64,000 nucleotides of DNA from Escherichia coli (lineage in GTDB: Bacteria > Pseudomonadota > Gammaproteobacteria > Enterobacterales > Enterobacteriaceae): NCBI RefSeq assembly GCF_044647545.1, contig NZ_CP172818.1; one strand, 5' to 3'. Below are positions 3,243 through 40,993 of this stretch, piece by piece. A program made the translations under genes and the position numbers. Position 1 is the stretch's first letter. Every line of letters begins with the position of its first letter. The notes under the pieces are model-generated. The model made no database searches. It saw nothing but the letters and a program-made list of their open reading frames with translations, and had not been told where the DNA came from.

Positions 3243-3626
3243 ATGTTCGTTGACAGACAGCGAATCGATCTGCTGAACCGGTTGATCGACGCACGCGTTG
3301 ACCTCGCCGCATACGTGCAACTGAGGAAGGCAAAAGGATACATGTCCGTCAGCGAAAGCAATCATCTACGAGATAACTTTTTTAAACTGAATCGCGAACT
3401 GCACGATAAATCGCTGCGGTTGAATCTTCATCTGGATCAGGAAGAGTGGAGTGCTCTTCATCATGCTGAAGAAGCATTAGCGACAGCCGCAGTATGTTTG
3501 ATGAGTGGGCACCATGATTGCCCGACTGTTATTACCGTCAACGCCGATAAGCTTGAAAATTGTCTGATGAGCTTAACGCTGAGTATCCAGAGCCTGCAGA
3601 AGCACGCCATGCTTGAGAAGGCCTGA
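3243..3626 (+). CDS. bssR: Biofilm regulator BssR
   Basis: 127 aa from ATG 3243 (MFVDRQRIDLL...), RBS gaggag upstream; ORF-track start 3210 is an upstream in-frame extension. Confidence 0.88.
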   Translation: MFVDRQRIDLLNRLIDARVDLAAYVQLRKAKGYMSVSESNHLRDNFFKLNRELHDKSLRLNLHLDQEEWSALHHAEEALATAAVCLMSGHHDCPTVITVNADKLENCLMSLTLSIQSLQKHAMLEKA

Positions 3627-3736: not shown

Positions 3737-4852
3737 ATGCATCGACAATTCTTTTTCCTTGTGCCCCTTATTTGTCTTTCTTCCGCTCTCTGGGCGGCTC
3801 CTGCAACGGTAAATGTCGAAGTACTGCAAGACAAACTCGACCATCCCTGGGCGCTGGCCTTTTTACCCGACAATCACGGTATGTTAATCACTCTGCGCGG
3901 CGGCGAGTTGCGTCACTGGCAAGCAGGAAAAGGATTATCTGCGCCGCTTTCCGGAGTGCCGGACGTTTGGGCGCACGGGCAGGGCGGCCTGCTGGACGTG
4001 GTTTTAGCGCCTGATTTTGCTCAGTCTCGCCGCATCTGGTTAAGTTATTCCGAAGTAGGCGATGATGGCAAAGCCGGAACTGCTGTGGGTTATGGCCGCT
4101 TAAGTGATGATCTCTCAAAAGTGACCGACTTCCGCACCGTCTTTCGTCAGATGCCAAAACTGTCTACCGGCAACCATTTTGGCGGGCGGATGGTATTCGA
4201 CGGTAAAGGTTATCTTTTGATTGCTCTGGGCGAAAACAATCAGCGCCCGACGGCGCAGGATCTGGATAAATTACAGGGCAAACTGGTGCGTCTGACCGAC
4301 CAGGGCGAAATCCCGGATGATAATCCTTTTATAAAGGAATCCGGTGCACGCGCCGAGATCTGGTCTTATGGCATTCGTAATCCACAAGGAATGGCGATGA
4401 ATCCGTGGAGTAAAGCACTATGGCTGAATGAACATGGCCCGCGCGGTGGTGATGAAATTAATATCCCGCAAAAAGGCAAAAACTACGGCTGGCCGCTGGC
4501 AACCTGGGGAATCAACTATTCGGGCTTTAAGATACCGGAAGCGAAAGGGAAGATCGTCGCCGGGACCGAGCAACCTGTTTTTTACTGGAAAGATTCGCCC
4601 GCCGTGAGCGGCATGGCCTTCTATAACAGCGATAAATTCCCCCAGTGGCAGCAAAAATTATTTATTGGCGCGCTGAAAGATAAAGATGTCATTGTGATGA
4701 GCGTCAACGGCGACAAAGTGACAGAAGATGGCCGTATTTTAACGGACAGAGGGCAGCGAATTCGTGATGTTCGCACTGGACCCGACGGTTATTTATACGT
4801 TCTCACCGACGAGTCCAGTGGGGAATTACTTAAAGTTAGCCCACGCAATTAG
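3737..4852 (+). CDS. yliI: Soluble aldose sugar dehydrogenase YliI (PQQ-dependent, signal peptide)
   Basis: 371 aa ORF with N-terminal signal peptide; matches YliI. Confidence 0.9.
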
Positions 4853-5721: not shown

Positions 5722-6924
5722 ATGACGCAATACTCCTCTCTCCTTCGTGGTCTTGCAGCGGGTTCTGCATTTTTATTCCTTTTTGCCCCAACGGCATTCG
5801 CGGCCGAACAAACCGTTGAAGCGCCGAGCGTGGATGCGCGTGCATGGATTTTAATGGATTACGCCAGCGGTAAAGTGCTGGCAGAAGGCAATGCGGATGA
5901 GAAACTGGATCCCGCGAGCCTGACTAAAATCATGACCAGCTATGTGGTTGGGCAGGCGCTTAAGGCCGATAAGATTAAACTCACCGATATGGTGACGGTC
6001 GGTAAAGATGCCTGGGCGACGGGAAATCCGGCACTGCGTGGTTCATCGGTAATGTTCCTCAAACCGGGCGATCAGGTTTCGGTGGCAGACTTGAACAAAG
6101 GTGTGATTATCCAGTCCGGTAATGACGCCTGTATTGCGCTGGCCGATTACGTTGCCGGGAGCCAGGAGTCATTTATTGGTTTGATGAATGGTTATGCCAA
6201 AAAACTGGGTCTGACCAACACTACCTTCCAGACGGTGCACGGTCTGGATGCGCCGGGGCAGTTCAGTACCGCGCGCGATATGGCATTGCTGGGTAAAGCA
6301 TTAATCCACGATGTGCCGGAAGAGTATGCCATTCATAAAGAGAAAGAGTTCACCTTCAACAAAATTCGTCAGCCTAACCGTAACCGTCTGCTGTGGAGCA
6401 GCAATCTGAATGTTGATGGCATGAAGACAGGAACCACTGCAGGCGCGGGATATAATCTGGTTGCTTCGGCTACCCAGGGTGATATGCGTTTAATCTCCGT
6501 AGTGCTGGGGGCGAAAACTGACCGTATCCGTTTTAATGAGTCTGAGAAATTATTGACCTGGGGTTTCCGCTTCTTTGAAACCGTGACGCCAATTAAACCT
6601 GATGCCACCTTTGTGACTCAGCGCGTCTGGTTTGGTGATAAGAGCGAAGTGAATCTCGGGGCAGGCGAAGCGGGCTCAGTGACCATACCGCGTGGGCAGC
6701 TGAAAAACCTGAAAGCGAGCTACACGTTAACGGAACCGCAGCTTACCGCACCGCTGAAAAAAGGTCAGGTTGTCGGGACCATTGATTTCCAGCTTAACGG
6801 TAAATCCATTGAGCAGCGTCCGCTGATCGTGATGGAAAATGTGGAAGAGGGCGGATTCTTTGGTCGGATGTGGGATTTCGTGATGATGAAATTCCATCAG
6901 TGGTTCGGCAGCTGGTTCTCTTAA
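5722..6924 (+). CDS. dacC: D-alanyl-D-alanine carboxypeptidase DacC (PBP6)
   Basis: 400 aa, signal peptide, SxxK motif (SLTK), SGN motif; matches DacC. Confidence 0.92.
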
Positions 6925-8383: not shown

Positions 8384-8667
8384 AACTTCCCGACGCAAAG
8401 TGATTAAAAGGGAGCCAATACAGGCAAGTCGTTGAGAATAAAGTGCAGGTTAAACTGGGTAAAGCGGCATCGTCTTATTTCCCTCAAGCGGCCTGTTTAC
8501 GGTGGGTGATTGTAACGGGCATAGGTTAAATAAAACTTAAAGAAAGCGTAGCTATACTCGCAATAATGTAAGAATGTGCTTAACCGTGGTTTCAGCTACA
8601 AAATTTGCTTTCTCGTTAGCTGCGCTTTTATTAAACTTTGCGCGATTATTATTGGCGAAGAAATTGC

Positions 8668-9900
8668 ATGCAAAATAAATTAGCTTCCGGTGCCAGGCTT
8701 GGACGTCAGGCGTTACTTTTCCCTCTCTGTCTGGTGCTTTACGAATTTTCAACCTATATCGGCAACGATATGATTCAACCCGGTATGTTGGCGGTGGTGG
8801 AACAATATCAGGCGGGCATTGATTGGGTTCCTACTTCGATGACCGCGTATCTGGCGGGCGGGATGTTTTTACAATGGCTCCTGGGGCCGCTGTCGGATCG
8901 TATTGGCCGCCGTCCGGTGATGCTGGCGGGAGTGGTGTGGTTTATCGTCACCTGTCTGGCAATATTACTGGCGCAAAACATTGAACAATTCACCCTGTTG
9001 CGCTTCTTGCAGGGCATAAGCCTCTGTTTCATTGGCGCTGTGGGATACGCCGCAATTCAGGAATCCTTCGAAGAGGCGGTTTGTATCAAGATCACCGCGC
9101 TGATGGCGAACGTGGCGCTGATTGCTCCGCTACTTGGTCCGCTGGTGGGCGCGGCGTGGATCCATGTGCTGCCCTGGGAGGGGATGTTTGTCTTGTTTGC
9201 CGCATTGGCAGCGATCTCCTTTTTCGGTCTGCAACGAGCCATGCCTGAAACCGCCACGCGTATAGGCGAGAAACTGTCGCTGAAAGAACTCGGTCGTGAC
9301 TATAAGCTGGTGCTGAAGAACGGTCGCTTTGTGGCGGGGGCGCTGGCGCTGGGATTCGTTAGCCTGCCGTTGTTGGCGTGGATCGCCCAGTCGCCGATTA
9401 TCATTATTACCGGTGAGCAGTTGAGCAGCTATGAATATGGCTTGCTGCAAGTGCCTATTTTTGGGGCGTTAATTGCGGGTAACTTGCTGTTAGCGCGTCT
9501 GACCTCGCGCCGCACCGTACGTTCGCTGATTATTATGGGCGGCTGGCCGATTATGATTGGTCTGTTGGTCGCTGCTGCGGCAACGGTTATCTCATCGCAC
9601 GCGTATTTATGGATGACCGCCGGGTTAAGTATTTATGCTTTCGGTATTGGTCTGGCGAATGCGGGACTGGTGCGATTAACCCTGTTTGCCAGCGATATGA
9701 GTAAAGGTACGGTTTCTGCGGCGATGGGGATGCTGCAAATGCTGATCTTTACCGTCGGTATTGAAATCAGCAAACATGCCTGGCTGAACGGGGGCAACGG
9801 ACTGTTTAATCTCTTCAACCTTGTCAACGGCATTTTGTGGCTGTTGCTGATGGTTATCTTTTTAAAAGATAAACAGATGGGAAATTCGCACGAAGGGTAA
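8668..9900 (+). CDS. mdfA: Multidrug efflux MFS transporter MdfA (Cmr)
   Basis: 410 aa from ATG 8668 ([14 protein letters not shown]...), 12-TM MFS; matches MdfA. Confidence 0.93.
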
Positions 9901-38993: not shown

Positions 38994-39893
38994 TTATGCA
39001 GAGAAAAAGGCGATGAGAATCGGCACTAACAGACTAAGAATAAAACCGTGAACAATCGCCGCCGGGACCATATCCAGCCCGCCAGTACGTTGAAGAACGG
39101 GCAGGGTGAAATCCATCGATGTGGCACCGCATAAGCCCAGTGCAGTAGAGCGGCTGCGGCGAATCAGCCCAGGGATCAACATAATAGCAATCAGCTCACG
39201 GGCCAGATCATTAAAAAACGCCGCGCTCCCGATTACCGGACCAAAAGATTCGGTCAATAAAATACCGGAAAGAGAATACCAGCCGAAACCGGAGGCCATT
39301 GCCAGCGCGGTATTGATGGGAAGATCAAGAATAAAGGCGTTAATTAAACCACCAATTAATGAACTGGCAACCACCACCACGGCGACAATCATTCCCCGGC
39401 GATTAAGGACAATCTGCTTTAAGGTCATGCCATTATTGCGCAACTGAATACCGACGAGGAAAAGTAGCAGAATTAAGGTGTATTCACTGGCTTCGGTCGC
39501 GTGTTGTAAGAAAGCCAGTCCACTCAGGCCAATGGCAAAACCAATCACTACTACGCCGCACAGTTTTAGCGACTCCAGCGCCATCGCAATACGCGATGGG
39601 AGTTTTTCTTGCTGGTGGTAGTTGCGCCACGGCAGACCGCGCTCCAGCCACATCAGGGCGGCAATATTACACAGTAAAATAACGGTAATACTGACAGCAG
39701 AATAATGCAGAATCGCCAACAGGTTACTGGCGAGGTTATCGAGAAACGCCAGACTGATACCCATAAAAAAGAGAATGAGGTAAACCATCCAACTTAATAG
39801 CTGATTAATAACTTTTAATGCAGCTTTTTGGCGAAGCGGAATGAGGTAACCCAAAATCAGGGGAACCAGAATGATTAACAGCCCAGAAAACAT
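38994..39893 (-). CDS. lysO: Lysine exporter LysO (YbjE)
   Basis: 299 aa from ATG 39893 (MFSGLLIILVPL...), multi-TM. Confidence 0.88.
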   Translation of the reverse strand: MFSGLLIILVPLILGYLIPLRQKAALKVINQLLSWMVYLILFFMGISLAFLDNLASNLLAILHYSAVSITVILLCNIAALMWLERGLPWRNYHQQEKLPSRIAMALESLKLCGVVVIGFAIGLSGLAFLQHATEASEYTLILLLFLVGIQLRNNGMTLKQIVLNRRGMIVAVVVVASSLIGGLINAFILDLPINTALAMASGFGWYSLSGILLTESFGPVIGSAAFFNDLARELIAIMLIPGLIRRSRSTALGLCGATSMDFTLPVLQRTGGLDMVPAAIVHGFILSLLVPILIAFFSA

Positions 39894-40297
39894 GAAAACC
39901 CAGTCCTTGCAAAGATGAAGTCGAAATGCGCGATGACACACTACTGAAAGCGGAAGGACGAGTAAAGTTGCAATTAAAAGGAAATGTTATGCATCAGGAG
40001 CAGGGGATTTTTATTATGTTGCATTGTTGTGGTCTCTTCCATGTGCATTAAGCCACTGGCGAGGAGCGCAAATCGCCGATCGTTTCCTGTAGGCCGGGGC
40101 AGCCCACATAATGTGGGCTGAGGGCGCGTTTTACAGGGATCAAACTTACCGGTCGCGCGAGAAGTCCAACTTCAGCCCGAGGTTCATGTGGCTTCCTGGC
40201 CTTCGGGAACCGCTTCAGCGTATTGACGCCACCAAGACCCGTGGTTCGGTAACGTCGAAGATAAAACAACCAGGGCAGATAAAGTGCCAATGCTTAA

Positions 40298-40993
40298 TTA
40301 ATTACGTTTTTCCAGTAGAGTCCGGTAAATCAGACCACCGATAATACCGCCGACAATTGGCACCACCCAGAAGAACCACAATTGTTCTAACGCCCAGCCG
40401 CCCTGGAAGATAGCAACCGCGGTGCTGCGCGCCGGGTTAACAGAAGTGTTAGTCACCGGAATACTGATTAAGTGAATCAGGGTTAAGGCCAGACCAATAG
40501 CGATCGGCGCAAAACCTGCCGGAGCGAATTTGTCGGTTGCGCCGTGGATCACCAGCAGGAAACCTGCACTCAATACCAGTTCAACTACCAGCGCGGAAAG
40601 CATGGAATAACCGCCTGGCGAATGCTCGCCATAACCGTTAGAAGCAAAACCGCTGGCTGCCGCGTCAAAACCTGTTTTACCACTGGCAATTAAATACAGC
40701 AGCGCCGCCGCAACAATACCGCCGACAACCTGGGCAATTACGTAGCCAACGACTTCTTTTGCCGGAAAACGTCCGCCAGCCCATAAACCAATAGTGACCG
40801 CCGGGTTAAAATGACCACCAGAAATATGACCAACAGCGAAGGCCATCGTCAGAACGGTCAGACCGAATGCCAGCGCCACGCCGGCAAAACCAATGCCTAA
40901 TTCCGGGAAGCCTGCGGCCAGTACGGCACTACCACAGCCACCAAAAACAAGCCAGAAAGTACCAAAACATTCAGCTGCTAATTTTCTGAACAT
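40298..40993 (-). CDS. aqpZ: Aquaporin Z
   Basis: 231 aa from ATG 40993; two NPA motifs (HFNPAV, SVNPAR). Confidence 0.95.

Follow-up and report, generated by a model that had tools for sequence, protein, structure and literature searches.

The lysO-aqpZ Spacer and Its Alleles

The analyzed window is a stretch of 64,000 nucleotides (64 kb) from an Escherichia coli genome (NCBI RefSeq assembly GCF_044647545.1, contig NZ_CP172818.1), in which the genes lysO and aqpZ, both on the minus strand, are separated by a spacer of 404 bp (39894-40297), as described earlier. The gene order hcp, lysO, aqpZ, ybjD is that of E. coli, and the 20 kb around the site are 99.9% identical to FDAARGOS_497, ECONIH1 and N-01, the sole break being the spacer itself. 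The spacer is polymorphic in length: 494 bp in K-12, 457 bp in N-01, 414 bp in TUM9975 and 320 bp in 09-02E, compared to 404 bp in the window. Only approximately 104 bp adjoining lysO (39894-39997) are conserved across these alleles; the variable part is a GC-rich repeat, which has opposite orientations in K-12 and N-01 and carries internal deletions in TUM9975 and 09-02E. The features of the spacer are collected in Table 1.

Several searches of the spacer gave little. The two short open reading frames that a sequence-only reading of this DNA had pointed out (40048..40290 minus, 40111..40344 plus) do exist, and no significant Pfam family was found for either of them. The Rfam search of the window spacer returned nothing but a chance match to HOTAIR_3, and no repeat features are listed in the RefSeq annotation of K-12. 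The lysO gene is regulated by ArgP; the position of the lysO promoter or of the ArgP site was not found in the literature consulted.

Table 1. Features of the lysO-aqpZ spacer and its flanks (window coordinates), and second inverted TRIP1-like copies at other loci.
Feature	Location	Strand	Remarks
lysO	38994-39893	minus	
Upstream leader and promoter region of lysO	39894..39997	minus	Identical in N-01 and K-12; nearly invariant among the five structural alleles; left of 39998, no change relative to N-01
Hyper-divergent tract: TRIP1a relic and immediate flanks	39998..40294	.	297 bp
Decayed 3' tail of reverse-oriented TRIP1a	40021..40069	minus	Aligns to the N-01 tail with many substitutions and indels; tail stem GCGCTCC...GGAGCGC broken
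Partial profile match 1	40050-40140	+	nhmmer E = 1.1e-20; model positions 49-145 of 340
Forward partial TRIP1 copy, 71 bp	40070..40140	+	P1 5' arm, hairpin 1, hairpin 2 5' arm and loop; 3' half missing
12-mer previously called REP-like, cctgtaggccgg	40086..40097	+	Part of TRIP1 P1b/P2 stems; aligned to cctgaaggccgg or cccggaaggccgg in other copies
Palindrome: TRIP1 hairpin 1 stem with mutated loop	40100..40120	+	ATGGAT/ATGAAT changed to ATAAT; GGA gone
Hairpin 2 5' arm and loop, gagggcgcgttttacagggat	40121..40140	+	3' arm absent; family alignment ends at 40140
Degenerate reverse-oriented TRIP1 5' half	40141..40268	minus	Own ruined hairpin 1 at 40170-40195
Partial profile match 2	40268-40170	minus	nhmmer E = 4.4e-8; model positions 27-128 of 340
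aqpZ-proximal flank, N-01-type allele	40269..40297	minus	About three differences from N-01 (two substitutions, one gap)
aqpZ	40298-40993	minus	
Second inverted copy, locus L057	1544-1691	minus	
Second inverted copy, locus L033	9310-9457	minus	
Second inverted copy, locus L024	6951-7099	+	
Second inverted copy, locus L020	7913-8061	+	

The Spacer Contains a Relic of TRIP1a

TRIP1 repeats were first reported by Rudd in 1999, according to Li et al. (2024, Genes 15:236, PMC10888264). In the latter study, TRIP1a is an element of 266 bp with 62-65% GC that is placed 158 bp upstream of the start of ybjE and 70 bp downstream of the aqpZ stop codon; it was found in 4703 of 6725 E. coli genomes (3448 in forward and 1255 in reverse orientation), and TRIP1c adjoins yohI (PMC10888264). 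Applied to K-12 (locus L002), the published distances lead to positions 4017-4282, i.e., a segment of 266 bp and 65% GC with CTGCACCG and GGAGCGCAAC at its two ends. This segment exactly matches the element that we had delimited; thus, the element is TRIP1a. The published polymorphism of both orientations at the locus agrees with what is seen in K-12 (forward) and N-01 (reverse). The spacer in the window occupies the orthologous position (ybjE/lysO-aqpZ), at exactly which a TRIP1a element is already known. It should be noted that an identity with RSA/BEE95 had been suspected at first and was dropped once the coordinates identified TRIP1a; RSA is 150 bp long and has 6 copies in K-12 (PMC5172473).

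To describe the state of the window copy, we used an nhmmer profile built from 48 full-length copies (340 model positions) and a covariance model of the conserved core. The profile has only two matches in the 64 kb, both partial and on opposite strands (Table 1). With the core covariance model, the window scored 33 bits (positions 21-112 of 148), compared to 120-163 bits for intact copies. The limited range of model positions covered by the two matches, together with the low covariance score, indicates a relic and not an intact member; a full TRIP1 element (146-273 bp, with the conserved "double-Y" structure) is not found in the window. The forward segment of 71 bp is 97.3% identical to the TRIP1-like copy type located between yegH and asmA and carries the diagnostic bases of that type, not those of TRIP1a. 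The best identity of the segment 40141-40297 to any complete E. coli genome is 84-86%. The decayed tail and the reverse-oriented half match the TRIP1 family weakly, i.e., the window allele is highly diverged, which counts against the identification.

The window copy and TRIP1a share the locus, the sequence family, the GC-rich hairpin architecture and the polymorphism in orientation, copy number and internal deletions. The differences are that what remains in the window is a decayed tail and a pair of truncated 5' halves pointing in opposite directions; that the central piece belongs to the yegH-asmA subtype, a type outside the five published for TRIP1; and that the GGA of the hairpin 1 loop is lost. 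Taken together, we consider it very likely that the spacer is a truncated and rearranged relic of TRIP1a and that the palindrome discussed below is the stem of its hairpin 1. The guess of a decayed repeat element made in the sequence-only reading was therefore right. The parts that have been lost are the GGA of hairpin 1, the 3' arm of hairpin 2, the 3' arm of the P1 stem and the tail stem; from the loss of these conserved parts we infer that the relic is inert in the source genome, with no function of its own, and would at most contribute a stable hairpin to an aqpZ read-through RNA.

Structure and Distribution of Intact TRIP1 Copies

Intact TRIP1 copies are approximately 266 bp long and have, from 5' to 3', the following parts: (i) a long closing stem (AAAATCGC...GCGATTTT); (ii) hairpin 1, CAGCCCRCAUGGAUGYGGGCUG, i.e., CAGCCC[A/G]CATGGATG[T/C]GGGCTG in DNA; (iii) hairpin 2, with the loop CA-N-GGA; (iv) a GC-rich hairpin; and (v) a tail stem. 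Scanning one genome per species with the pattern CAGCCCNCATGNATGNGGGCTG yielded 56 loci, mostly in Escherichia, Pseudescherichia, Pseudocitrobacter, Kluyvera, Enterobacter, Klebsiella and Raoultella, and multiple copies in a single genome were frequent. The element occupies, among others, the yohP-dusC (yohI) and yegH-asmA intergenic regions and numerous intergenic positions in Klebsiella.

Several observations on individual copies are worth recording. The yegH-asmA TRIP1-like subfamily (L003, L004 ~1480-1760), which is outside the five published TRIP1 loci, has a covarying tail stem CACGTTCAC...GTGAACG; the K-12 copy at this locus (L006 3487-3759) carries a deletion of 178 bp that removes its 5' half. 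At several loci, a second, divergent and inverted TRIP1-like copy is situated 100-200 nt from the main one and scores 43-68 bits with model R1 (Table 1); an inverted pairing, as found in the window, seems to be a recurring arrangement. The K-12 TRIP1a copy is bracketed by two inverted 13-mers with 85% complementarity (ATATTCTTGCGCT / AGCGCAACAAGAT, L002 3993-4005 and 4275-4287); the pair may be a terminal inverted repeat that serves as a substrate for local orientation flips between strains. Some copies contain a nested insertion of approximately 100 nt (L014 ~3350-3460, L053 ~8600-8700, L024 ~6650-6750) with an extra hairpin whose loop is AGGGAU (GAGGCCCAGGGAUGGGCC), which suggests a related smaller module.

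The PLSDB "plasmids" CP125156.1, NZ_CP134663.1, NZ_CP079601.1 (L008) and LR134122.1 (L009) are whole chromosomes or chromosome fragments, being non-mobilizable and having housekeeping neighbours; in these records, K. pneumoniae shows 13 places resembling TRIP1, and one E. coli shows 10. Contigs of metagenome-assembled genomes assigned to unrelated taxa (L012 Desulfacinum, L046 Sporobacter termitidis, L017 Proteobacteria) carry TRIP1 of Klebsiella or Escherichia type, which is most simply explained by contamination of the bins.

We studied covariation in 46 non-redundant cores from 7 genera; these sequences are related, and hairpin 1 is partly fixed by the search pattern. In the core, the 45 predicted pairs are 98.9% paired, and changes on both sides were found in 12 pairs. 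The covariation score was 0.195, compared to 0.087 in shuffled alignments (0 of 500 reached the observed value) and 0.02-0.045 for slid partners. The two free positions in the stem of hairpin 1 form A:U in 23 of the 46 cores and G:C in the other 23, with no other pairing. Most of the covariation is found in hairpin 2 and the P1 stems, on which the pattern did not select. G.U pairs occur in 33 cells at 9 positions and A.C in one cell; this large excess of G.U over A.C indicates that the forward strand is the folding strand.

The genes flanking the copies are convergent in 22 cases and divergent in one; between tandem genes, the copies are antisense in 11 cases and sense in 7. A check by eye of the sequences upstream of TRIP1 copies found no convincing conserved -35/-10 elements of a sigma-70 promoter. 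In general properties, TRIP1 resembles REP/BIME, ERIC/IRU, boxC and RSA: all are small, GC-rich, hairpin-forming and intergenic, and they accumulate between convergent genes but hardly occur between divergent ones. The sequences of TRIP1 and REP, however, are unrelated.

The Palindrome and Its Alternative Explanations

The sequence-only reading had drawn attention to a palindrome of 17 bp at 40102-40118. The palindrome is there, and it extends to a perfect 21 bp, CAGCCCACAT-A-ATGTGGGCTG (40100-40120), with arms of 10 bp around one base. It occurs once in the 64-kb window and in none of 100 shuffles of the window. The reading held that such a geometry cannot form an RNA hairpin. This is incorrect: a stem of 9 bp with a loop of 3 nt is predicted at -16.0 kcal/mol for the plus strand and -15.2 kcal/mol for the minus strand. 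The position of the palindrome is that of TRIP1 hairpin 1, which in intact relatives has a loop of 4-6 nt. Compared to the ATGAAT variant of the loop (PapRG, N-01), the window loop is missing one base; the perfect symmetry thus probably arose by a deletion of 1 nt in the loop (ATGAAT > ATAAT), which also removed the conserved GGA.

The search for further copies that had been proposed was run on 5,426 complete E. coli genomes, and the perfect form is absent from all of them, as well as from the JGI metagenome contigs (two scans, both empty); it is unique and unconserved, an outcome that the reading itself had named as part of what would speak against its proposal. That proposal, a site for a dimeric protein, can be phrased as an operator through which a dimeric DNA-binding regulator would control lysO or aqpZ. 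A perfect inverted repeat with two arms of 10 bp around one base is not produced by chance, and it is located approximately 210 bp upstream of lysO, both of which would suit an operator. However, the one-base spacing is private to the window, whereas homologous copies conserve pairing around an asymmetric centre of 4-6 nt (ATGGAT; AUGGAU in RNA) and are found at unrelated loci (yohP-dusC, yegH-asmA) and also in Klebsiella and Enterobacter. The arms covary in a way that retains pairing (the A:U and G:C states described above) and contain no fixed half-site. At orthologous loci, neither half-sites nor spacing are conserved: in the orthologues, the centre is 2 nt long inside a loop of 4-6 nt, or the element is deleted or inverted. 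Furthermore, the conserved part of the spacer adjacent to lysO stops at 39997, approximately 100 bp from the palindrome. We consider an operator highly improbable. A decayed REP/BIME element is, in our estimate, even less credible. It draws on the agreement of GTAGGCCGG (40089-40097) with the reverse complement of CCGGCCTAC, which we take to be the end of the REP consensus. The comparison with REP models was carried out, and apart from the chance HOTAIR_3 match, neither the REP-derived naRNA4 model nor any other had a match at E<=10 in 39500-40700, although the same type of search detects a true REP in L003 with 33 bits; an imperfect palindrome of approximately 35 bp that naRNA4 would detect, as expected for REP/BIME, was not detected there. 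The 12-mer described as REP-like, cctgtaggccgg, belongs to the closing stems of TRIP1 (cctgAaggccgg in most copies) and aligns to a variable TRIP1 position (GAAGGCCGG in most copies), and the whole stretch fits the TRIP1 profile with E = 1e-20. The palindrome is explained by a hairpin stem within a fragmented copy of a known repeat; it is very probably no new protein-binding site, and an annotation as such a site would be unwarranted.

Two further explanations leave the TRIP1a identity in place and concern the reality of the allele and its effects. Compared to N-01, the nearest relative, there are 148 mismatches and gaps, all of which are in 39998-40294, whereas the rest of the segment 38600-41550 is identical (approximately 1.3 kb on each side). 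The divergent tract contains, for example, CAGGGATCAAACTTACCGGTCGCG; the window allele has no megablast match with 80% coverage in the 5,426 E. coli genomes, and 39990-40085 has no blastn match in them. Such sharply bounded, extreme divergence in an identical background points to a problem in the assembly, or else to structured repeats undergoing ectopic conversion or template switching. The private allele could have been produced by ectopic conversion, with the yegH-asmA copy as donor, together with template switching in the quasi-palindrome; a very short import of a rare allele, or an error in the consensus or the assembly where a hairpin repeat can invert, could also account for a divergent tract of this kind. 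A sequencing or assembly artefact could explain part of the private allele, namely its mosaic orientation, its many small indels and the loss of one base from the loop; it would have arisen at a GC-rich, quasi-palindromic, multi-copy repeat that exists in two orientations, and the perfect palindrome would then be absent from the cell. The confinement of all differences to the repeat between fully identical flanks, the failure to find the variant elsewhere, and the single-base indels inside otherwise 97%-identical sequence are consistent with an artefact. Unlike random noise, however, the 71-bp segment carries approximately seven diagnostic bases of a different real subfamily (yegH-asmA), and real deletion alleles at this locus are present in finished genomes (TUM9975, 09-02E); we regard an artefact as rather unlikely. 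A role in cis on RNA is also unlikely, somewhat more so. In this case the minus-strand hairpin (-15 kcal/mol) would be a barrier to 3' exonucleases or a pause site that affects the stability of aqpZ mRNA or read-through into lysO. In spacers of the K-12 type, aqpZ is directly followed by a strong intrinsic terminator (L002 4283-4352; 12-bp stem, U7, -23.8 kcal/mol). Promoter and terminator scans found none in the window or the K-12 spacer; it should be noted that the genuine aqpZ terminator of K-12 escapes the terminator scan owing to its 9-nt loop. The N-01/window-type allele has no such terminator (window 40235-40300), and the segment 40269..40297 folds no better than shuffled sequences (z = 0.11). 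The 3' ends of aqpZ transcripts thus probably differ between E. coli lineages, and, since the window type lacks the terminator, an aqpZ read-through RNA would contain the hairpin. The absence of a terminator-like site between aqpZ and the hairpin, the stability of the hairpin on the minus strand, and the somewhat better folding of the whole minus-strand spacer compared to shuffles (z = -2.8) would fit an effect in cis. On the other side, no U-tract follows the hairpin, N-01-type relatives do without it, and the allele is private, hence there is no sign of selection.

Similarity of Intact TRIP1 to TwoAYGGAY RNAs

The TwoAYGGAY RNA motif (Rfam RF01731; Weinberg et al. 2010) has been proposed to be a CsrA-binding small RNA (Gardner and Eldai 2015, PMC4333381). 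The consensus of CsrA ligands selected by SELEX is RUACARGGAUGU, with GGA in a hairpin loop and with ACA and GGA conserved (PMC4347634). We compared TRIP1 with the TwoAYGGAY model, for which the Rfam gathering threshold is 43 bits. The K-12 TRIP1a (L002 4037-4176) scored 30.6 bits and the O157 TRIP1c 25.9 bits, both below the threshold, the reason being that the loop of hairpin 2 in E. coli TRIP1 is AGGGAU. The Kluyvera homolog (L033 9515-9676) scored 54.2 bits, above the threshold, and the Lachnospiraceae loci obtained with the same search pattern scored 72-79 bits. In the reciprocal comparison, the TRIP1 covariance model detected the Lachnospiraceae TwoAYGGAY RNAs (L045, L047, L048) with 31-44 bits. 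The TwoAYGGAY motif and the core of intact TRIP1 have a closing stem in common, together with a pair of neighbouring hairpins whose loops are A-N-GGA-Y; E. coli TRIP1 differs in having an extra GC-rich hairpin and a tail.

Hairpin 1 carries the loop motif CA-U-GGA-UG, and hairpin 2 carries CA-N-GGA-NG, which does not vary among the 46 intact cores. UGGA was found in hairpin 1 of 44 of these cores and CA-N-GGA in hairpin 2 of all 46; both loops of intact family members have, at the level of sequence, the features of a CsrA-binding hairpin. We infer that the forward strand of intact TRIP1 would fold as an RNA of the TwoAYGGAY class, whose two CA-N-GGA-NG loops would fit the CsrA consensus. The window copy is different. 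The TwoAYGGAY model has no match at E<=10 in 39500-40700; the loop of hairpin 1 is AUAAU, and hairpin 2 and P1 are both without their 3' arms. The GGA of hairpin 1 is lost (CACAUAAUGUG), and hairpin 2 keeps ACAGGGAU at ~40133-40140 in an arm without its partner.

A connection between TRIP1 and TwoAYGGAY was not found in the TRIP1 literature consulted, including the TRIP1 paper of 2024, and nothing relevant was found in the literature on CsrA with yohP or TRIP1. A wider model may be put forward tentatively, although we consider it more doubtful than probable: TRIP1 elements would be genomic copies of a TwoAYGGAY-class RNA, in which the forward strand, with two CA-N-GGA-NG hairpins approximately 25 nt apart, binds a CsrA dimer, and since copies are often inverted or deleted locally or converted ectopically, this binding would be switched on or off in adjacent transcripts. 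The window allele would then represent an inactivated state that was reached through conversion by the yegH-asmA copy. TRIP1 is a repeat of unknown function that mediates megabase inversions; by sharing the predicted TwoAYGGAY fold, it would inherit the published and testable hypothesis of a CsrA sponge.
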